Both the position numbers and the translations under genes were made by a program. From Neodothiora populina (lineage: Eukaryota), in NCBI RefSeq assembly GCF_041146345.1, contig NW_027191413.1:2976001-3040000 (forward strand): a DNA stretch of 64,000 bases. The letters run 5' to 3'. Of this stretch, positions 16,550 to 64,000 are shown piece after piece. The stretch's first letter is position 1. Each line of letters begins with the position of its first letter. Under the pieces are notes generated by a model. It saw only the letters and a program-made list of their open reading frames with translations, was not told the DNA's origin and made no database searches.

Positions 16550-18264
16550 CTAAGTCCACTTCTGGACGACGACGCCACCTCTCTTGAACTCGGACATGTC
16601 TCCCAGAACCAGACTCTTGTCGCTCAGCTCCTTGCTGGGGAAGGTGGTCATCAAAGCATAAGAGCGAGAGGTGCTGGCCGTGTTGGCGCGATTGACAAAG
16701 TCATAAACGTCGCCGATTGTGTGGGTTGTGTTGAAGCGGGACTGCAGTCTGGTGCCGTCGCCTAATCGGATCTGAAGCGTCACGATGGGTGCGGACTCGT
16801 CGACGGTGACTGTCGGCTGAGCCGAAGCTGGCGAAGAAGACGAGGGAGCGGCGGCGGCGGCGGCGGCGGCGGCGGCTGGTGGTGTTGTTGTTGTCGTTGT
16901 TGTTGCTGCTGCTGCTGCTGGTTGTGATGAAGACGAAGAAGCGGCTGGGGTCGGGCTGCCCAGACGCTGGCCGGAACCTCCAAAGGGCTTGTACTTTCTC
17001 TTGGGGGCGACGTAGTTTTGATCCTTGTGAGTGTCTAGCTGCAGATCCACCTCTTGACCGGGTTGAACATCGAGCAGAGCGAGCGGGGCTCTTCCCTGGT
17101 TGATCAGAGCCAGGACGGGAGCGTTGGCGGGGTCGTCGAAGCGGTGCAGCGGACCGTCGTCAATGGAGAAACCGTCGACCCACAGGTGAAGAGTGCGCTC
17201 GACTCGAGGCGGGGCGGTGGGGTTGGAGGAAGATTGCGCCGAGGTGGCGTCGGGGTCGTCGATGACTTGCGAGGGAGCGTCGTCGCCACCGAGCGTGTGA
17301 GCGCGACCGGTAAAGGCCGAAGAGCGCTGGGGAGCTTCTGGTGCCGAGTCCTCGGCCTCGGGACGGGCAGCATTGCGTCTGGCTTGGTTGAGGAGGTTGT
17401 TGAAGTAGTCGGGAGTGCCAGAAGCGGGAGCGCCAGCGGCAGCACCTCCCCGTTGTCCTCGGTTGGGGTCTTGCACTGCCAGACCAGACTTCTCACCGCC
17501 GGCAAAGAAGTCCTGGGGGGCCTCGTCTTCGCTGTCGCTGCCGTCCCCGTCGTGCGAGTTTTGTAGATCGTGGATAGTCCTCATCCTGGCTGAAGGTGTG
17601 GAGGTCGGGCGGTTCTGTGGCGGTCTTGAGGCAGCTGGAGCGGCCGAAGAAGGCAGGGGTGGAGCTGCCGAAGGAGGTGGAGAAGTCGACGAGGTCGTCA
17701 GGTCGGTGAGGTCGTCTTGTTGCGGCGATGTGTGTTGTTCGTCTTGCGAGGCAAAGTAGAGAGTGACGGCGTCTTCGAGACTCCACTCTGTGTTCTCGAG
17801 TGCGCTTTGGGCCTTTGGCGAGAGATTAGTCAGATGGTGGCTGCCGAGTAAAGGTGGTGATATTGAGATGATGTCGGTGACAAAAAGGTTGTGTTGATGG
17901 GGAGAGAAGAAAAGGAAGTAAAGAGAGACAGAGGGATGGAGGGATGAAGCATGTGGAAAGTCAAAGATGCGCCTTCCCAGTCCAGCTGAGGCAGTTGCCT
18001 TTTTGTTACAGGAACAAGCGGCTTAACTCCGAAACCCGGACAGCAGCCAAACCTTTTCTGTCCCTCGGTCACTTTTGTTAATGTCCTCAAGATACATCTT
18101 GTCATGTTCTGCGTACGTCTCTACATGGAAAAGGATTCGCACAATCATATTTGAGATGAGACAAGGAGAAGTAGACAAGAGTGATGGAGAAGGCTTACTG
18201 TGGAAGATGTGGCTCCAGTGATGCCGCAGAAGTGAGCAATCAGCTCTTCGTGACTGCCGTCCAT
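16550..18264 (-). CDS. SHP1: UBA-SEP-UBX Cdc48/p97 cofactor (Shp1/Ubx1/p47)
   Basis: Exon 1 (18264-18199) MDGSHEELIAHFCGITGATSST, 386-nt intron 18198-17813, then AQSALENTEWSLEDAVTLYF (UBA), FFAGGEKSGLAVQDP, SEP domain LHLWVDGFSIDDGPL, FGGSGQRLGSP, and UBX LQIRLGDGTRLQSRFN...TTFPSKEL. Confidence 0.93.
16848..16921. repeat. Compound trinucleotide repeat (GGC)n/(TGT)n/(TGC)n encoding poly-Ala/Pro/Thr in the Shp1 linker
   Basis: Directly visible in the sequence. Confidence 0.9.
17949..18145 (-). ncRNA. Candidate intronic box H/ACA snoRNA in SHP1 intron 1
   Basis: On the sense strand: hairpin GGGACAG..GGCT..TCCG GGTTT CGGA..AGCC..TTGTTCC, H box ACAAAA, second hairpin AAAGGCA..TGCCT..AGGCG..TGACTTT, then ACA 15 nt after the upper stem. 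Flanked by pyrimidine tracts inside an unusually long intron. Confidence 0.55.
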
Positions 18265-23355: not shown

Positions 23356-26300
23356 GTGGACGGATTAGTAGAAGGATCGTTGACGGCAGGCTTGAGTTGC
23401 ACTCTTGGCAAGAAACGAAAGATGATGGGTTCGACAAAGAGGAAAAGCCGGGATTTTATGTGTTTTTGCTCGCAAGTGAGAGTGAAGCTGCGCAAATGTA
23501 TCACATGCACACATTTGCAAACGGCGGCACAATGAATTGGCATTTACCCTCCGCCTGCGTTTTCCGTGTTTACTGGTGGATCTCTGGGCTCAATAATCCT
23601 CCCATTTCGGGAAGCATTTGTCCAATCCCACGTGGAGAAGCAGCGACTTTGGCTTTTCAGGGCCGGTTGCGGGGAGACGCTAACATTCCGCTGCACCTCG
23701 CTATTTGGCAAATGAACTTTCTGGGGCGCCATGGGGAGACAAACCGGTGGCTTGGCCCATCCGCACAACTTGTAGCTTGACCAAGCCGAATGCGTCTGTT
23801 CAAAGACACAGGAGACAGGGATCTTTCCACCAATCGATGCGCTTTACTGACTGTACTCTTGACATCTGCAGCGGCACTGTTCGCCTGTGCGACTTCCGAT
23901 GCGACAAAATCGCCTTCTTTTGCGCTCGTACAACATACACAAGTCAAGCTGGATCCACACCCTGCCTAAGTCATGCTGGGACTTTTTCAGCTTGCCCAAG
24001 AAAACAATCTCCGATTTTCCTTGGTATGCTCCCCAGGCTCGAACCGATCAAACTGCTAGGGCAACAATCACAACCTTATCGAGACCACAAATACCTTAGC
24101 CAGCCTCATCATTCCAGAAGGATTGGCGGCTCGTGCCACCTGACTTGCATCACATCATGTACAGTACTACTTTGTATACTACTACGCTACATGCATCAAT
24201 CCTCTTTGTGAGGGGAAATGCGGAGATGATTGCTACTCCGAGTATACGACCGATTGCACTACTACTGCTGCCTGCCCTTGATTTTGCCCCTTTGACATGT
24301 TCGAGGGCCATTTCCAGACATTATATCTACCCGATGTAGTGAATGCGTGTACTTAATCAATGAATTTCAAGAGGCTGTTTCGTCGATCTCCCGTTTCCAA
24401 ATACCGCAACCTAACGGTCAGGTTCACATCCCCGGAGAAGACCGACTTGGTCACATGGGGTTGTCTGGAGAAAGCATACCGTTGTGCGTGTGGTACAGCT
24501 GGAACGACGAGGGATGCTAAGACGGGATTGGACTCGAACCCTAGTGCATCCTGGCTTAAGCCAAGCTGAATCGAGCGTTCTTGACGTACCTTCGCAATAG
24601 GGATACAGCCCACTATAGCAGGTATAGGCTTATAGGATCCTCCGTCACCACACTTTGGAAACGACGTATGCCTACTTTCCCATTGCTATTATTTTTGCAT
24701 CCAAATAAACATCTGAAACGACTTCTTGTTGTCGAGAACAGATAAGTCAAGCGGAAGCATTCAAATCCGTCAGATGCGTACTCGGAAGGAAGAGTGTTCA
24801 CCTCGATTTCTTGGATAGGTCTTGGATTTTCTTGGCGGGTCGCCTTTCTGCACCCCACCACAAACTGCAAAGCGTCTACTCGGCCCGGCCATACCATAAC
24901 CAGACGAACAACATTCTCCGAGGCATCTGCCGATCTCTCGTGGTTTCGATACTGTGATTTTCTCGGTGCAGTAATTATGCTCGAATAAGCTGTTTCGCGA
25001 ATTAAAAGGGTCGAGCTTAACTCGCTTTATGATCTGTGCAAGCTCGCATGACATGACCGCAGCTGGCTGTCCATTGGAAACGGACTGTTGCCATGCCTTG
25101 GTATAGACCGTGTTCTCGATAAATGTCTCCAGACATTCGTAAACAAGGATTCCACCAAGCAATATCGAAGCGTCATTACCGTAAGATTACGCCAAAAAAT
25201 CTCTCAAGAATTTGTGTTCCCCCGATTCTTCCCCTGAAGTTTATGATGTCTGAATCTTTTATTGGCGAGGTTGTCACGCTGTTTCCGATCCTGATCCGGC
25301 TTGGTAGTCACTCGGTAGCTATACCATGTGAGCGGCACGCGGGGTCGCATGTCGCTTGGAACCCCATCACCATGGTCAGATCGAGAGCTTGTACAAGACT
25401 GTCGACTCGGAGCCTAACGTACCTTAGGTACTCGTGAGTTATGGCTTTCTTGTCCGGAGTGACTTGGCGATGAGTTACTCCGATTCGTCAAAAAAGGAAA
25501 GTTTATTAGGGATGATTGAGTTAATTACTTTTGATGTGTTGTTAGTTTGTGTGATAGAAGTGTCAAAGTCGCCAGAGTGACAGGCCCCCATAGCACAGCG
25601 GAGACACGAAGCGATAAGTCTCTCAACATTTTACGTCGTCATGAGCGAACAGTAGCGTCAGGAGTCATTATCAACAGAAACAAGGTACCTACTCGTTGAC
25701 GGTATTCGCAAACCAGAAATTTCATGATGTGGTATACAGAAGTTCCGCGCTGCGAGCGCTGTCTAAGCGTGGCTAAGCAATTGATAGAGACATGTCAAAC
25801 CCGTCGAGGAATGATAGGACTACAGCTAGACACCGAGGTCGCAGGTGCTGGCGAGTGATGGAGAAGACCCGCCGTCCCACTGCCATGCAGTTGCAGCTTA
25901 TTCTACGAACCGACCTGCTGTCAACGGCGAGATGCATGCATGCATGAGTCGGCACTCGACTCTCTACGTCCGTGGGTCCCCGCCTTAAGCTCGCTCCACG
26001 CTGCATACCTTAGCGAGAGCTCCAAGTGTCTGTTAATCGCCATGTAAGGTGAGTACTTTACTGATTAAATTGTCGGTTGTGATGCGGGGTTCGATCAGGG
26101 TCCGCCAGCGCTTATACAGCGCAATCATAAACATCCGTGGTTGTGGCATGCATACATGCCAGACCCTGATAGTCGCAAGCTAGGTAATCTTTCAAATCTA
26201 TAGCTTGTATATAGAGAGTGGGAGCAGAGCTGCGGAGTCCCTTGCTTCTACATTTGTAGCATAATCCACGATGTGTGTCCAGTTCACGGAGGATCTGCGC

Positions 26301-50416: not shown

Positions 50417-52052
50417 ATGTCTGGTATCAAGACGTCTATGACCGAGGCAAGGGTCGAGTTCTCTGAGAACTCACAAGACAATATGCACAGGACACCTGCG
50501 CTACCAATTGGAGCAGAACGCGTAGATTTGACAGAGCAGGAGGCGAGTTGGCATCTTTCCAATGTCCAATAGAGAGCCACTCTTATATGCAGCGTAGAAT
50601 TGCCGCCTTCGTCGTAAGACTGACAAAGTCATCCTGTCCCTTCTCGTCTGGGGATACTTCTTGCAGATCATAGATAAGACTGCTCTAGGATACGGAGCTC
50701 TCTTCGGACTTCGAACTGACCTCAAGCTTGTCGGCAAGCACTATTCGCTCGCGTCCAGTGCCACGCCTATCGCTCAACTAGCGTGGCAACCCATTTCGTC
50801 CTACCTTATCGTCAGAGCTCCACATCGGATCCTGCTGCCTCTACTCGTGCTTTTCTGGGGTATCACGATGGTTTGCATGGCAGCGTCATGGGATTTCGGT
50901 TCCTTGTTCGCTGGCAGGTTCATGTTGGGGCTTTTCGAAGGCAGCTGCCTTCCACTCTTCGCAATCCTGACCGGTAGATGGTACCGCAGATCCGAACAGC
51001 CTCTCCGAGTCGCTTGCTGGTATGGCACAAACGGAGTTGCCACAATCGCTATTTCAGTCATTGCTTATGGCTTAGCAAAGATTTCCCATTCTGCGATCGC
51101 AACATGGAGGATCCTGTTCCTCACCATCGGCCTTCTCACCGTCCTATCGGCTCCCTTATTGTGGTGGTTCCTGCCTAATGACATCGACAGCGCTCGATTT
51201 CTCACCGAGCATGAGAAGCGACAGACATATGAACGTCTTCGTGCCAATCAGTCCGGCGCTGCCAAAACGAAGTACAAGATGGCACATCTCGTTGAAGTTA
51301 TACTGGACCTAAAGACATATCCGGGGATTGGCATTGCCCTTTGCCTAAATTGCGGCGCTAGCGTAACTAACACCTTCGGTCCACTGATCCTCAGCGGCCT
51401 AGGATTCGACAAGTATACAACCTCTCTGTTGAATAAGCCGTTCGGTGCGACGCAGATCCTCACCATTGCCATCTCTTCGTTTGCTGCTCAGCGAGGCAAG
51501 AAAAAGGGAGGAGTCCTCTTAGCACTGGCTCTTCCAATCATTGCTGGTCTGGCGGCCTTGTATATGCTTCCTCGAGATCCCTCCCACACTGCCCCGCTTC
51601 TTGTCAGCTACTATCTATTGGGGTTCATCTTCGGCGGCAACCCCATCCTTGTCGCATGGATGGTGGGAAACACTGGTGGTTTCACCAAAGGCTCTGTGAT
51701 TATGGCGATATACAATGCTGCAGCCGGAGCAGGAAATATCATCGGCCCTCTCTTGTTCGCTACGCAGGACGCTCCAGCCTACAAGCCGGGTCTGAAAAGT
51801 GTCCTCGCAATGTTCGCTACACTGGCGGCCCTTGTAATCCTCCAAATGGTGTACCTCGTCTTCTTGAACAAACTCCAGGAGAGGAAGCGCGTCAAGGATG
51901 GGAAGCCAGCCAAGCTCGCAGATCTCAGCATGGAGCGCAGATATATCGCTATGGCTGAGGTTGCCGATGCTGAGCAGGGACCACGCATTGGTGACAACGC
52001 TTTCAATGACCTGACGGACAGACAGAACGACGAATTCATCTATATCTATTGA
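50417..52052 (+). CDS. Dal5/allantoate-permease family MFS transporter
   Basis: RRKTDKVIL...LQIIDKTALGY, GRFMLGLFE, WYRRSEQPLR, GNTGGFTK, GNIIGP, DLTDRQNDEFIYIY. First intron is GC-AG (50543-50597). Confidence 0.92.
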
Positions 52053-52441
52053 TCGTAGGCAGAGACGGTTTTCGGTTGCACTTTATTAATAAATGTTTGG
52101 TAATGCAGAGGTCCAGCTGAAACGCCAACCATGATGCCCTTACTTGGACTCATGATTATCAATTCTGCGATTCGCAAGAAATCATAAAGCTTAGAGCGGT
52201 CGGGTACCGGATCAACGTCCTCTATGCCACCAACATCGCCAATACGGTGATGACCCGCCAATCCAGCTGCAGCAAGGTAATATGGGGCCTTGCGCATATC
52301 CGGACATCCGTCTACAGAGACAGACACGTGCCGGAAACTCCTCTCTGATCCTTGCTGGACAGGATGGACAACTTCCGACAAAGACGGAGGGTTCACCTCG
52401 ATCTTACGAATAGTCAAGTCTCGTAGAAGTGGATTAGACAT
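52046..52441 (-). pseudogene. Truncated DUF1907 / C11orf54 (PTD012)-like gene fragment
   Basis: PPSLSEV...VSVDGCPDMRKAPYYLAAAGLAGHHRIGDVGG...PVPDRSKLYD...GVSAGPLH matches the family N-terminus as I recall it. Similarity stops after about 115 aa, where the frame runs into the 3' end of the permease. Confidence 0.65.
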
Positions 52442-53225: not shown

Positions 53226-53666
53226 TCAAAAGCGAAACAGACGTTCATCATCCATAAATCCTCTATCGCTGACGAGAACAAGCTTCGGCAAAGCATCATC
53301 AATTGTGTGCTCAATGCGTTCGGCAGGGAAGGCCGGGTCGATGGGGGCATAGGCTGCACCCGATTTCATTACCGCCAATGCGGCTACAACCGTGTCGACG
53401 GAGCGTTCCAGAGCTACGGCAACCACATCTCCATGGCCAATTCCTTGCTCTTCGACCAGCACATGGGCGAGACGATTTGCGAGTGTGTTGAGCGTTTGAT
53501 AGTCAAGTTCTATGTGACCAGAGATTACCGCAACATGTCTAGGGTACCGCTCTGCGGCGCTCTCAAAAAGCCGTGGCAACGAAAATCCAAGCGTTGCGGG
53601 GTTATCCGTGGCGTTGAACTGGCCAATAAGGGTTTGGTGGTCTCGCGCTGAAATAGTTCCTGCCAT
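53226..53666 (-). pseudogene. Truncated NRPS adenylation-domain fragment (A1-A2 only)
   Basis: LPRLFE...LDYQTLNTLANRLAHVL, GDVVAVALERS, VMKSGAAYAPIDPAFPAERI. Stops before the A3 motif (YTSGSTG), which I could not find downstream. Confidence 0.8.
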
Positions 53667-54248
53667 TTTACACAGTAGATCTTGCTAACCTTGAAGTATT
53701 CGAAACTTCTTGCTATAGGTTGGTTGGTGTACATAGCACAGCAGCGGAAGACCGTACACTTGTATATCATGAGTACACATATCGTATGACATGCATCGCG
53801 AATCCTAGGCCTCTTGGGAAACCATAGCACCTGCCGATTGAGGCAGACTGCCGCTTTAAGGACACGGCCGTTTTAGGTATGTCACCATTTGAAGTACCTT
53901 GCCTTTTCAAACATAGTGTTGTTGTCAACATCCTGCATTTAATATCGACAAAAGAATGATTCCACCATCGAAAGGTCCGAACACGCTTGCAGAGATAAGG
54001 AAGGTCTCTTACGATGGTCCAGCTAGCATGTGGTGAGCAAAACTGGTTCGCTTCTCCATGATCAGCTACGCAACGAGTGACCCACGCCGTCAGCGGGACT
54101 ACCTAGTGATGCCCTCGATAGGTGCCTATCTCAGTATATATGTGCATTCGTGCGCCTTACCTTCAGCGAATTTTCATTGCAATATCGTTTGCCACATCAA
54201 TTCTCTACTTTTCTTCGTTGACTTTCACTAAGCCTTAACTAATCTGTC

Positions 54249-55391
54249 ATGTCTGTCCCCGAAAGATTTAGCGGTTTCCAGGCGCCTAGCGCCGAAAACT
54301 GGCTAGATTTCCAAAAAGGTTCCTGGGAGCCTCGTCCATTCGGTGACAACGATGTTGACATCAAGATTGAATGCTGCGGCGTGTGTGCTACGGACGTGCA
54401 TGTTGCCCGTCAAGATTGGGGCAAAACACCCTATCCCTTGGCTGTCGGCCACGAGATCATCGGGAAGGTGCTCCGCGTGGGTTCCAAGGTGTCACTTGCG
54501 ACAATCGGTCAGCGTGTTGGTATTGGCGCCCAGGTCTACTCCTGTGGAGACTGCCGGCACTGCAAGAATAACAATGAGACATACTGCAAGGAGCAGGTTT
54601 GCACGTATGGTGCACCATACCCTGGGACCAATTATACGACTCAGGGGGGTTCTCATCCCACGCCCGCGTCGATGAACACTGGTAAGGTCGATGGGAACGG
54701 GCGGGTGATTTGGTTTCTGATCGCTGACTTTGTGGTTGTTACTAGGGTGTTTCCAATACCAGACAGTCTGGCCAGCAGCGACGCCGCACCGATGATGTGC
54801 GCTGGTGCCACCGTGTTCAGTCCATTGAAACGCTTCGGTGCGAGACCTGGTACCAAGATCGGCGTCGTAGGCATCGGCGGGCTCGGCCATTACGCTATTC
54901 AGTTCGCAAAAGCTCTCGGCGCGGAAGTTTGGGCTATTTCGCGGTCGAATGCGAAAGAGGCTGATGCGAGATTGATGGGTGCCGATGGTTTTCTCGCTAC
55001 GAGTGAGGAAGGCTGGAACGAGCCGCACAAAATGACATTCAACCTTATCGTCAGTACAGCCAGCTCATTTGATGAGTTCCAACTATCACAATACCTCAGC
55101 CTCCTGGACATCCACGGGCGCTTCAATTTGGTTGGCTTGCCTGCTGACGGCATCAAAGTGTCGACTTTCGATTTCATCGAGAATGGCTGCTTCATGGGGG
55201 CAACGAATCTTGCTAGCCGACGCGAGGTGCTCGAAATGCTCGACTTGGCTGCCACCAAGGGTATCAAGTCATGGGTGCAAGAGATACCCATATCGAGGAA
55301 AGGCATCCAGGAGGTGATAGAGCAGATAGAGGATAGCAGCATTCGCTACAGGTCCTGCCTGATTGGTTACGATGAGGCGTTCGGAGTTTGA
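54249..55391 (+). CDS. Zn-dependent NADP alcohol dehydrogenase (CAD/Adh6-like) with an apparent -1 frameshift
   Basis: CCGVCATDVH, GHEIIG, CGDCRHCKNNNETYC, APMMCAG, GIGGLGH. Frameshift near 54644-54651 and intron 54682-54745. Confidence 0.88.
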   Translation: MSVPERFSGFQAPSAENWLDFQKGSWEPRPFGDNDVDIKIECCGVCATDVHVARQDWGKTPYPLAVGHEIIGKVLRVGSKVSLATIGQRVGIGAQVYSCGDCRHCKNNNETYCKEQVCTYGAPYPGTNYTTQGGSHPTPASMNTGKVDGNGRVIWFLIADFVVVTRVFPIPDSLASSDAAPMMCAGATVFSPLKRFGARPGTKIGVVGIGGLGHYAIQFAKALGAEVWAISRSNAKEADARLMGADGFLATSEEGWNEPHKMTFNLIVSTASSFDEFQLSQYLSLLDIHGRFNLVGLPADGIKVSTFDFIENGCFMGATNLASRREVLEMLDLAATKGIKSWVQEIPISRKGIQEVIEQIEDSSIRYRSCLIGYDEAFGV

Positions 55392-58409: not shown

Positions 58410-59012
58410 TTTAGTAGTATTATCTAGTGATCGCGGTTGATTCTCATGCGAGTATGAGATGAGCACGTTTATATATCTGCTCAGGTCTTGTGCTGATTTT
58501 ACGATATTACGATTTAAACCAACATTCAAACTAGGCAAGCTTCGATAGAGCGGAACGATTGCAAGTTGCCTGCATTTTGCGCTTCTGGTCTATCTATATC
58601 TGTGCGTCTGCATGTATGAGTCTTCATGCCAATCTTGTAAAGAGGCTTGATTGGGTTGTCAAGTTTATATGCATCGCATGTATGCTGAAATATACAGAGA
58701 GCACGGTGTAGGGCGGTCTGCGGCATCGGTCTCGATAGGAGCACAAGACTAATGGTAGGGGAGAGGTAATGGAATGGGTAGATCTCTGTAGGGTTGCTGA
58801 GAATTGCCGTTGAATAGTCGACGCGAATTTTGTTTGAACCCGGGCCACTTCTCAGCTGCATAACAGGGTTTGACGTATTAACTCGGCGAAGCTGGTTTGT
58901 CTAACGTGTAGCTACCCACTTTGCTAGAAAAGCTTCCAAGCATCTCGGATCTATCATCTCTCTGCATATATATCTCCCCAAAACTCCATAGAAGGCCCGG
59001 ATTCGTTGTCTT

Positions 59013-60970
59013 TTAGGGTCGCTGCATGTTTAGATCACAGAACTTCCTCATGCGCTCCCACATATCGATCAGATGTCTTCTTTCACTGATGAGGTGACCC
59101 TCTCGAGGATAAGTAACCATGTCGACAGGCACATTGTTGTGAACACACGCCCGATAAAATGCTATGGCCTGCTCTAGAGGCACACGCACATCATTCTCGC
59201 CATGAAGAATCAGGATGGGGGTCTTAACATGACGCATGTGCCACAACGCACTGGCATTGCGACCATCTAAATTCCCAATCCGATCCTTCTCGGGGCTTGT
59301 CGAGTCTTCTCCGGTCTTCACGTCCCATGGAGCACCGCCCACCATTTCGGGCTGGGTAGACCCTTCGCGTGTGGTCATCTGTGGTTGGTCGCAAGGGGGG
59401 TTTCTATCTTACTTTGGAGTCACCCGCGAGGATTTTCGATTCAGAGGAGCCATATGTGGAGCAGGTATATCAGAATGGACCTCTATGGCAATGGGGAGCG
59501 ATATATATATGGCACAAGCCCTGCTAATACTGTAACGCAAGACGTCAATACAGTCCGTGTAATCGACAGTTCCACCTCCTCCAAGAGCGTAAGCCGCATG
59601 TTTTTCACCTCTGCTACTGCCGCCACGGTAGTTGGGACAGAGAACGGCATAACCCATTGAGACTAGAACCGGAACCTCGAGACAATGACAGACAGAGAAG
59701 CCTGTGGTTATTCGCCAGTATGGCCCTCCGTGCGGTATAAGAATTGTTGCGAGTGGCCCATCTTCAGGATTGTATGTGGACGGAACATACATCATTCCGT
59801 CTAGATGATATCCATCTACTGCGCTAGTTGAGATTGACCAGGACTTGGATATTTCCAGGGCAGCGATCCTGGAATTGTGGGCGGACAACTTAACTATACC
59901 AGCAGGCTTTGAGACAGAAAAGACCTCCTCTGGATTCGACCCATCACCTTTGCTGATCGCAACGACAGCTTTATTTCGAGTCTTGAGGACGTCAAATGAT
60001 ACCATCTCACACTCATCGCCAAAGACCATTGTACGAGTGCTATTACTGATTGAGTAGGACTCGTCAGTTAGGTACCTTTGGACACGGTAAGATATGCAAG
60101 ATTGATTCTTCCGCATTGTTATACAACAGTGCTCCTCGTTGCCATCCTTATGCTCTACATAGCAACTGCTCTTGACATCAAGTTCGTATAACGAAAGAGA
60201 AGTCAAGATATGATTTGGGACATGACCAGCAATGAAGTAAACACCACAGTCTCCCCATGCAATCTGGCTGATTCGACCAGGGAATTCGATGATTTTTTTC
60301 GGCTCCAGTCCAGACTTGGATGTCAGCCAGATCTCTGCACCGTAGATGCATGGAGAGTTGCAACATAGCAAAGTTCTTGCGAATCAGAGCTCCAAGTGAA
60401 ATCATGCACGTGTCTGTGGTCACTAACGATGGTGTCGACTTGCCTTGTGACAATATCGACAACCCTCAGGCGGTGGTATTCTTGGTCGTGGCCCCAGATG
60501 TTCGGATCGTCTTTCGCTTTCTCCTTTGCAACCTGCTCAATTGTCTTCTCATCCGCGCTTGTGTATGCGATACTTGTGCCGGTACAGTCCCATCGAAATT
60601 GCACAATTTGCTTTTCAAATTCTACCGGTGTTATAGGGTATGCTTCTCCACCACTGACTGACAACAGATACACGGCAGAACTTTGCCCTGGCCGTTGTCG
60701 GTCCGATTTGAACGCGACTGTTGTTCCCGACGGAGACCACTCGGGCTGTTCGTCATTGTATAGACCCAAAGTGAACTGGCGACTGCTTTTCTCTTCGCCG
60801 ACTTTGGCAATCCAGATTGAGGAAGTGGCGTTTTCGCCCTCCTTACTGTAAGCTTGCAATGCATAGGCAATCAGGTTCCCATCAGGAGAAATTGAAATAT
60901 CACGAGGAACTTGAAGGTCGGCAAGAGCCACCAAGCTCAACTCTGGCCTGTTACTTGCATCACTCCTCAT
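59013..60970 (-). pseudogene. S9 (acylaminoacyl/dipeptidyl) peptidase pseudogene with an internal inversion and a frameshift
   Basis: Propeller repeats (ISPDG, EWSPSG, TWSSDS), PHGGPY, PNYRGGSSRG, ILHGENDVRVP, YPREGH on the minus strand. The nucleophile motif GWSQGG lies on the plus strand (59349-59520). Frame change near 60360. Confidence 0.9.
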
Positions 60971-62013
60971 TGTTCTTGTTTCGAGTGCTGGTAGGCAAGT
61001 CTTTGAGAGAGGGAACCTCAGACAGTGAAAACTGCGAGGTCCAAGGGATTGTATGCATCTGGACTGCTTTGACCAATAGCGTCAATTGTCTCCGAACTCT
61101 TCCGTGCTATCAGTTGTACTATAACCTCATCTAATTTGACTGAGATAATTAGCAACCCCCCAACTACGCACCCCTGCTAGGATTTGCTTCGCTTCAATGT
61201 TATCACGGTAACGTTATCTACGCGAGAGTCATCTACCTTATTTTCGATTCGGCATTGTGCTTGACTACCTCGCAAGAAACGGCACTATGGGCTCTCAATT
61301 CATAGCTACACATTTGGAATGAGTCCTCGCGGGATCGCGGTCAGATGCAGGCAACGAGTCCTTGGCGGGGATTAGGTATAGGCTTATGCGGCTCTGGCAT
61401 TGTGATTGACAGCCGCAGTTGGGACGCCGCAAAGCACAATGAACAATCTGGCTCTAGATGTGGAGGGGTCAGAGATGAGGACAACCGGATAAATAGCGCA
61501 GCAGCGCCTATGTACAGTAAGGCAACAGGAAACTAATATATTGATGAAGCATCAGTACTGGTGTACCTTTCTCTGGCATGGACAGCTTATCACTGATGAG
61601 ATTTACTATCGTCACCGCAGTTGCCATACCTACCCCGCACTACCTTGACTCGCTGCTGTGACATTGTTCCACCTTCATTACAGTGTCCATGGTATGACAG
61701 GAGAGGGAAACAAGGCTGCCATTTACAAAGTACGACTTTCTGCCAACAGGTTTGTACGGCTTCCATATTCCTTTACATCTCATCGTATGTTGGATGTCGC
61801 AAAGCTACTGATACCATTGACTTGTTGGCATCGCCGCAGTTTCATTGATCCTGCTTATCCGAGGCACTTTGCATACGACTCTGCAACATCTACGTGAGAC
61901 TCATCAAGTTTATGAAGACTCTGCATGATGAGATCATATTCGGACGACACCGCTTTTCGTCCGCTCTGGACTGATATCAACGAGGCGTTGCGCACGTTCC
62001 TGGAATCACCAGC

Positions 62014-63893
62014 ATGAGCAGCAATCTAGAACGTGTAGCGCCCTCGTTCCTCCGAGATAGGCCTTATAAAGTTGTCCAGAGTCCTCCTGACTTAGCCTAC
62101 TGGAGGGCGCGGATTGGTATGCTCGTGGAGAATGAGGTGGTGTTGCACAAAGATGAATTTGACAGGTACTTCCCCTACCTCAGCAATATCTGGTGGTATG
62201 TAAGGACAGGGTGGACATTTACACGAGGGGAGGACACCCCGGATAAAGAGACAACCTGGTATGACTGCAGGCTGCCTCTAGCGATGCGAAAACTCGAGGG
62301 AGAATTGTGTGACTACCATATGGAAGTGAACGAAGATCTGCGGACCGGTCGAATAGTTATAAAACGTACCGGGGACCAAAGTCTCCATACACACTCGCTA
62401 GCTGATGCTGACAAGATCGATATCGAATCGAACGATGGTCTAAGGAATCTGGTTCTATCAATGATCTGGTGTGGAACAGAGCCATGCGAGATTATGAAGA
62501 TTTCCGCGAAGCAAATGTAACCGGAGAGAAGCTACTTGATGCTGGTGGTGAATATCTTACCGAAAAAATCATCGATCGATGGTGTAGGACGTTCAGCAAA
62601 TTATTTCCGAACATATGGCGTAACGGTAATAGAGCTGTATCGGATCATTTGGACACGATCAAGGCTGGCAAGGATGACTTTACAGGCTCATATGTCGAGG
62701 ATACAAAACCGAGACGAGGAAGCGGGTTGAAGGATCCTGAGGGGGTACCATCGACAATTCAGCAAGCGGAATTTCTTGTTCGGACAACCGGGGTGAAGGA
62801 GGGATACGATGTCTGTGAATCGTGTTTCGACTTCCTGACCAATCCGGCTAACACTTCTCGACTTACCGAGATAAACACCATGGAGGGCCATCTAACCAAA
62901 TGGGTCATATTGCGGATCGTTACTGAGAGCGCCAAGCAAGGTTGTCGTCTATGCCAGTTATTTCTAGTCAATCGACCTGAAAGTCTTGGTTGTTATGGAA
63001 ACGACAAGAATGAAGGTTACTACGTACGAGTACTGGCAACTAAGCAAAGGTATCTGAGACTGAGAGGAGACAGTCTGGATTTTGACATATTCATAGTCAG
63101 TCATGCTCCTGATTTGCAAACAGTCGATAATCCATATTGGGCACCTGAGCAGAGAGACGCTTGTGTGTCTGCAAGATCTGGTACGTCTGTTGCACATTCT
63201 CAATTATATGACCAGTGGAATGATTCTTCTGTTCTAGGCGACGTAGCTGCTTCACATATCTCGTCAAGGCCGGTAGTTACCGACTCTTCGTCCGAGCGAG
63301 CTTTTTATCTCATGAACGATCAGATCAAAGACTGCCTCGAAAATCATGGCGAGCCCACAACATGCATCCAAACCAAATTGCCCTTTCGCGTGGTCGATGT
63401 CGACAACCCTCATCTCATAAAAGTTATCAATACTGAAGGGCAGACCGGGAGATATATAACTTTGAGCTACTGCTGGGGAGCAAAAGAACAATCGATCATG
63501 CTGAAATCAAACACTATAGACGAACTCCAAAAGGCGTATCCGGTGAAAAAGCTTCCCAAAACCATCACTGATGCGATATTGGTGACTCGAAAATTGGGCA
63601 TCCGGTACCTCTGGGTGGATGTACTTTGTATCATTCAAGACGATGCGACAGACAAGAGCGAGCAGATTGCGTGCATCAAAGACATATTTGCAGGTGCATA
63701 TGTTGCCATTTGCGCCGCCCGCGCCGAGTGTTACAGGGACGGTTTCTTAGGCCGCAGCACTGAAGGTCGATTCACTGTGTCCAGGCGATACGATAAGTCG
63801 ATTGCTTGTTCAACCCCAATTCCATGCAAATTTGTCGAGAGAGCCAATCTGGTCACGAGCATGGACATTAGAAGAACGGCTGTTGTCACCTAG
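62014..63893 (+). CDS. HET-domain (heterokaryon incompatibility) protein with an N-terminal C2H2-type zinc-finger-like domain; frameshifted, 3' end uncertain
   Basis: LPFRVVDV, YITLSYCWG, LPKTITDAILVTRKLGIRYLWVDVLCIIQDD, DIFAGAYVAICAA. The upstream ORF 62014-62520 joins through a -1 frameshift at about 62501. Probable in-frame intron 63181-63237. Confidence 0.82.
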
Positions 63894-64000
63894 GAGCTCG
63901 ATCTTTGGTAAATCTGCATTATGTTGGGAATGCGACCATAAGCAATATATCATGCCAGACAGGATGATGGAAGAGAAGGGCATCCCGTTGAGGTTGGTCT

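Follow-up and report, generated by a model that had tools for sequence, protein, structure and literature searches.

Near the telomeric end of a contig of Neodothiora populina, a species linked to an aspen canker (PMC8032200), a gene predicted to belong to peptidase family S9 carries the segment with its nucleophile serine in reverse orientation, and our results indicate that this is very probably a single fixed microinversion, neither programmed by an enzyme nor reversible, in a subtelomeric pseudogene that was probably gained horizontally and has recently decayed. The event belongs to an ordinary class, of which it is an unusually clean example. The stretch of DNA analysed, hereafter the window (64,000 nt), forms the right-hand end of contig C6 (2,976,001-3,040,000 of 3,040,970) in assembly GCF_041146345.1, which comprises 23.96 Mb in 18 contigs; positions given below are those of the window unless a contig is named. 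Contig C6 closes with 13 TTAGGG units, from its position 3,040,890 to its end, with TTAGGGG absent; the start codon of the peptidase gene lies ~3.9 kb from this (TTAGGG)n telomere, and the whole gene lies 4-6 kb from it. A literature search by species name returned nothing on the N. populina genome.

The locus consists of four collinear, intron-free pieces, each without stops. Piece A (60359..60970, minus strand) holds the start codon and the N-terminal beta-propeller (homologue residues 1-204), with 77% identity to the intact homologue P0002 (660 aa) and a Pfam PD40 match (E=1e-8); piece B (59521..60359, minus strand) comprises the remaining propeller and the start of the alpha/beta-hydrolase domain (residues 211-489); piece C (59349..59520, plus strand) is the inverted segment with the nucleophile serine (residues 491-547); and piece D (59013..59348, minus strand) contains the C-terminus with the catalytic Asp and His and the stop codon, being 85% identical to P0002 and four residues shorter than it, in a variable loop. 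Pieces B, C and D each scored above the curated cut-off of Pfam Peptidase_S9 and cover consecutive profile positions (6-56, 59-112 with E=3e-10, and 129-209, respectively). By tblastn, P0002 residues 1-204 were placed at 60970-60359 (-), residues 211-489 at 60359-59523 (-, in a different frame), residues 491-547 at 59350-59520 (+) and residues 548-660 at 59348-59022 (-). The codons of Ser (59389-59391, +), Asp (59190-59192, -) and His (59094-59096, -) fall in columns invariant in 22 aligned homologues (S504, D604 and H636 of the homologue alignment), and these residues are retained in the pieces in Ser-Asp-His order after the N-terminal beta-propeller; their catalytic role here is one that we take from the known order of S9 motifs.

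Judged by its sequence, the ancestral gene is a predicted peptidase of family S9, the name 'Dipeptidyl-peptidase V' on its homologues being a UniRef source label and the activity of the family here a prediction. The locus shares the propeller and alpha/beta-hydrolase layout and the Ser-Asp-His order with the fungal S9 acylaminoacyl-peptidase/YuxL-like type (Penicillium rolfsii KAF3391713.1), a type with solved relatives (8wt1, 5yzm and the human acylamino-acid-releasing enzyme 7px8), and pieces B and C are 84-89% identical to the nearest Penicillium S9 proteins; unlike these fungal relatives, it is broken by a frameshifting deletion and an inversion, and it resides in a Dothideales genome. No single open frame for a complete enzyme exists in the present-day locus, with stops at 60323-60325, in the shifted upstream frame, and at 59409-59411, in the flipped piece as read on the gene's strand. 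The gene is single-copy: all four P0002 matches in the genome are accounted for by three pieces at this locus and one paralogue of 26% identity, and a second copy of 59000-61000 or of 61000-64000 was not found in the genome. Exact look-ups in the protein collection found none of three window ORFs; they found none of six S9-derived ORFs and one of four other window ORFs.

For the breakpoints of the inversion, 400 pairs were tested, and the 132 that yielded a stop-free frame with the serine motif were scored against 10 intact homologues. The sole top-scoring, gap-free solution coincided with that of an earlier sequence-only reading, in which 59349..59520 had been described as flipped in place: its product reached a mean score of 372, against at most 349 for any other register, and the repaired protein, whose alignment to S9 homologues that reading had proposed, showed no gap in any of the 10. 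The return of Ser, Asp and His to S9 order after the flip was likewise borne out, at the invariant columns described above. Two other claims stood in part. Reverse-complementing the segment does restore one frame, but this is weak proof alone, since 132 of the 400 breakpoint pairs do likewise; and the serine is indeed covered by the flip, but of 170-bp flips placed at random in a gene of 1.95 kb, roughly a tenth would be expected to cover the serine codon. The rearrangement is a precise in-place reverse complement with no base gained or lost; the outcome for 59349-59520 is identical to that for 59350-59519 and for 59351-59518, and the length is accordingly 168-172 bp, with a 2-bp ambiguity. 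The ancestral junction is deduced from protein comparison, as a metagenome scan for the DNA of an intact allele returned 79 loci, none above 52% identity. The inversion also creates a 99-aa antisense ORF (59236-59535, +) with its own ATG and the serine motif, which was set aside as a product of interest, being without an Asp or His partner, and is regarded as a by-product.

A 5-bp inverted repeat marks the ends of the segment, with GGGCT at 59349..59353 and AGCCC at 59517..59521 on the plus strand. The sequence-only reading had described this repeat as off by one base, and it is: relative to the true flip, the register of the right arm is shifted by one base, and a flip on the repeat would leave the segment out of frame. 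In-register complementarity at the junctions amounts to 2 bp, these being the first two bases of the left arm, and no longer repeat was found at the junctions. When 20,000 segments of 172 nt were drawn at random from the distal window, at least 2 bp in register occurred in 16%, while at least 4 bp and at least 5 bp within one base of register occurred in 7% and 2%, respectively, the one-base tolerance behind the latter two figures having been picked after the data were seen. The in-register match is at chance level, which counts against the explanation preferred here; the rarity of a near-register repeat of at least 5 bp, present in 2% of random flips, in turn mildly favours involvement of the repeat, which may have weakly guided the event.

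Contigs of two public sequencing runs, from two studies, contain the inverted form. In run X1, which possibly represents the source DNA of the window, one 41,261-nt contig (depth 35) spans both junctions in the inverted form and differs from the window over the locus at one site, the T run at 60293-60299, which is one T shorter in X1. Run X2, part of a separate study dating from the same year, yielded a 198-nt contig that crosses the right junction, extends 52 bases to one side of it and 146 to the other and shows zero differences, at a depth of 8, most of the stretch and the other junction being uncovered in this run; run X3 (763,876 short records) gave no contig at the locus, which does not prove absence. 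No joints or loose ends at the locus were listed in any of the three runs compared. A search for both orientations across the junctions had been suggested as a check; made on contigs, which drop rare variants and could miss a rare second orientation, it gave only the inverted orientation in X1 and X2, and at least two samples therefore carry the inversion in their DNA. That the segment was flipped by the assembler is very improbable: the assembly may hold small homopolymer errors, as suggested by the T-run that differs from X1 and by the G-run of a neighbouring alcohol dehydrogenase (ADH) gene, which is one base short, but the k-mer contigs of two studies give the inverted junction base for base, and the junctions have no repeat of a length that could confuse an assembler.

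The gene carries a second lesion, which the sequence-only reading had placed near 60360. At 60353..60365 (minus strand), ~19 nt are missing, that is, six codons and one base lost at ~60359; homologue residues 205-210 are absent, the frame changes at 60359, and the X1 contig is identical there. ORF 60323-60970 ends in the shifted frame at 215 aa, and because of this upstream frameshift the gene is null in either orientation of the inverted segment. An intron that would rescue the frame was considered and rejected, the sole GT-AG stretch noticed by eye being 30 nt long, too short and in frame; homologues match the whole gene length without introns. The run at 60293..60299 (+) has seven T in the window, a count that keeps the homologue's frame, and six T in X1, and this difference reflects either a homopolymer error, in the window or in X1, or a further lesion, the third, that shifts the frame. 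The loss of the gene is recent, with drift under about 4%: no stop occurs in 1,953 nt, which bounds neutral drift at 3.4-4.1% (95%), and 6 of 203 invariant columns are changed in the locus, compared with 0-14 when each of 18 intact homologues was left out in turn. Recency had previously been argued from the inverted piece having no stops; it holds by way of the whole gene, but the piece alone bounds only ~34% divergence.

The origin of the gene was examined mainly through piece B. Its named best matches are all from Penicillium or Aspergillus (48-84%), the proteins of P. rolfsii, P. canariense and P. samsonianum standing at 84%, and named matches outside Aspergillaceae reach at most 47% (an Oidiodendron cluster), most of them lying at 25-35%. 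A 26-row tree built from named proteins places piece B as sister to those of the three Penicillium species just given (98/96), and a 53-row tree that includes rows without a named taxon, the two weakest matches being left out, agrees with it; an AU test rejected the alternative in which 18 Aspergillaceae rows are held together without piece B (p=1.1e-7). A profile search of 1.84 billion representatives returned 147 further cluster representatives, none of them above 54% identity to piece B. A protein nested among Aspergillaceae in a Dothideales host points to horizontal gain, and the gene was probably acquired from a Penicillium-like donor. GC3 was tried as a signal of origin and proved uninformative, with 0.46-0.55 in the S9 pieces versus 0.47-0.60 in subtelomeric neighbours. 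Although they are placed in different Penicillium sections, P. rolfsii, P. canariense and P. samsonianum have S9 homologues that each share 94% identity with P0002, against only ~80% with proteins of P. crustosum/camemberti type, and the gene may move within Penicillium too.

Contamination would give the same protein affinity: the locus would come from a Penicillium-like fungus, the assembler having attached it to the chromosome end. The inversion itself would then stand, whereas the host assignment and the transfer reading would fall. Besides the Penicillium-like protein itself, this reading draws on two cox1 genes, 78-84% identical in DNA, on contigs C9 (35,596 nt) and C10 (27,019 nt), which imply that the assembly holds two mitochondrial genomes and hence that DNA of a second fungus is present, and this weakens the horizontal-transfer step. 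Further, if the X1 contig is collinear, one of its ends falls near window position 23,660, short of a host gene with a UBX domain (16553-17584), a core gene 100% identical to a N. populina protein, with next named matches in Dothideomycetes (at most 74%) and no Penicillium or Aspergillus names among the 120 matches listed. At its other end, however, the same contig, if collinear, extends to window-equivalent 64,918, just into the TTAGGG repeat, and the total of X1 (28-29 Mb, with the contig at depth 35) leaves no room for two nuclear genomes, unless X1 is the contaminant. The telomere of contig C6 has the host-type repeat, found at 6 of 18 contig starts of the assembly, and no TTAGGGG, whereas TTAGGGG is reported for P. 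oxalicum (PMC9241887) and TTTAGGG for P. polonicum (PMC10100673), the two species on which this comparison rests. The neighbouring ADH has patchy matches (Glonium, the best, Diaporthe and Aspergillus piperis), with no Penicillium names among the 120 listed, and the GC content of this chromosome end (0.485) resembles that of the three other contig ends sampled, two of them telomere-bearing (0.446-0.481), to which the distal block showed no sequence similarity. Taken together, we consider contamination improbable and favour a true transfer.

The sequence-only reading had inferred a one-off inversion through microhomology or template switching, and our results support this, with the refinement that the in-register microhomology is only 2 bp. 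In the history that we envisage, a gene from a Penicillium-like donor would have been gained horizontally, have been functional for some time and then have become dispensable, taking two or three lesions recently. During replication or break repair, a nascent strand would have dissociated from its template within the brief run of G at one end of the segment and switched to the opposite strand ~170 bp further on, where the short G/C-run match between the two ends would have allowed priming; it would then have copied the segment backwards before returning, through template switching or microhomology-mediated break-induced replication (MMBIR). Within a microinversion of this kind, we lean slightly towards this route; end-joining of an excised fragment, reversed on 2 bp, is a serious possibility that we rate somewhat short of even. 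One sub-case of end-joining, in which two staggered cuts 170 bp apart (Spo11/topoisomerase-type, with 2-nt overhangs) were followed by backward re-ligation, would fit the exactly 2 bp of in-register complementarity and the absence of base loss, but such complementarity is common by chance (16%) and chromosome ends, at least in yeast, are usually poor in meiotic breaks, and we regard it as unlikely. SPO11 leaves 2-nt 5' overhangs, and in the mouse germline, according to the sections cited, double-cut local fragments of 16-709 bp are returned reversed, as at our locus; the mouse inverted insertions, however, carry deletions and a longer microhomology at one end (median 5 bp) and depend on resection, whereas the inversion described here is balanced (10.1101/2020.06.23.168138; 10.64898/2026.02.11.705388).

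The size of ~170 bp resembles a nucleosome repeat or an Okazaki fragment, a likeness to which we give no weight. Eukaryotic template-switch microinversions are reportedly the subject of papers by Loytynoja, Goldman and Walker. Those described in the parts of PMC8755829 and PMC8604942 drawn on here resemble our locus in being precise in-place reverse complements with a short inverted end sequence, in affecting single-copy DNA and in that they can fall within coding sequence. The locus differs in size, with 168-172 bp versus 17-33 nt in the human-chimpanzee set (PMC8755829) and spacers of 2-5 bp in yeast genes (PMC8604942), and in repeats, with 2 bp in register versus flanking repeats of at least 3 nt (PMC8755829) or arms >9 bp (PMC8604942). 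The human and chimpanzee microinversions were copied precisely, with short inverted repeats at their flanks, and for very short repeats the authors prefer MMBIR; template switching on repeats of 3-4 nt is argued by Potapova et al. to be hard (PMC8755829), a point against the route preferred here. The spacer inversions in yeast coding sequences recurred, in the sections cited, only on arms >9 bp (PMC8604942), which argues against recurrence at the S9 locus.

A reversible on/off switch, that is, a eukaryotic intragenic inverton toggling the catalytic serine segment, had already been thought unlikely in the sequence-only reading, and we find it barely credible. The clean flip covering the nucleophile and the short inverted repeat at its ends would suit such a device, and the genome holds one locus of DUF3435, a Starship captain-type tyrosine recombinase, although on another contig (C4:1189556-1190921); this locus is in two parts with a stop between them. 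The sequence-only reading had noted no recombinase in the window, and a Pfam scan of 39 ORFs in its distal part likewise found no recombinase family. Against the switch, a flip on the 5-bp repeat, the longest at the junctions, leaves the segment out of frame, 2 bp being in register; the frameshift upstream, in the window and X1 alike, makes both states null; and one orientation only is found in the X1 and X2 contigs. Bacterial intragenic invertons (PhaVa) are like our locus in that a flip wholly inside a gene gives a premature stop, and the validated case, the thiC inverton, has 11-bp repeats bound by a recombinase and both orientations in clonal samples; in contrast to what the cited parts of that work describe, our locus has at most 2 bp in register, one orientation, two null states, a eukaryotic host and no linked invertase (PMC10028968). 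The switch reading fails outright on two features that define an inverton. It is a very long shot, though a conceivable one, that in wild N. populina isolates with an upstream-intact gene the segment flips recurrently on the G/C-run repeat by slippage, with no dedicated recombinase, toggling a foreign peptidase, the sequenced strain being a dead end in which the upstream loss came later.

A single fixed microinversion remains our preferred reading, and as such the locus neatly illustrates, in nature, two processes already known: a balanced inversion of intermediate size that involved almost no homology, and the acquisition of a foreign metabolic gene, and its later loss, at the end of a fungal chromosome. 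It adds a data point between microinversions of 17-33 nt and inversions of kilobases, and its junctions constitute a usable strain marker for a tree pathogen. The case would carry far greater weight only if both orientations occurred in isolates with an otherwise intact gene, because no on/off switch by intragenic inversion was found described for fungi in the literature searched, which covered few subscription papers.

The distal 40 kb of the arm contain transporters, regulators of the Zn-cluster type, a HET gene and what appear to be stubs, as indicated by a Pfam scan of ORFs, and atlas searches with two of the flanking genes returned family names only. The HET-domain gene (62469-64000) is the last of the arm, with no more than a few hundred bases between it and the telomere repeat. 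Two apparent gene stubs were observed, the start of an AMP-binding (NRPS-like) domain standing alone at 53229-53684 (-; profile positions 1-100 of 384) and a fragment of a DUF1907 domain at 52049-52441 (-; profile positions 3-88 of 285). The Zn-dependent ADH gene (54249-55391, +) has a run of six G at 54644-54649 that is one base short, which is a real frameshift or a homopolymer error. The NRPS A-domain start, the DUF1907 part and the frameshifted ADH fit a decaying subtelomere. A 64-nt intron of the ADH gene (54682-54745), 3' of the short G-run, masks the frameshift by keeping a long ORF open.
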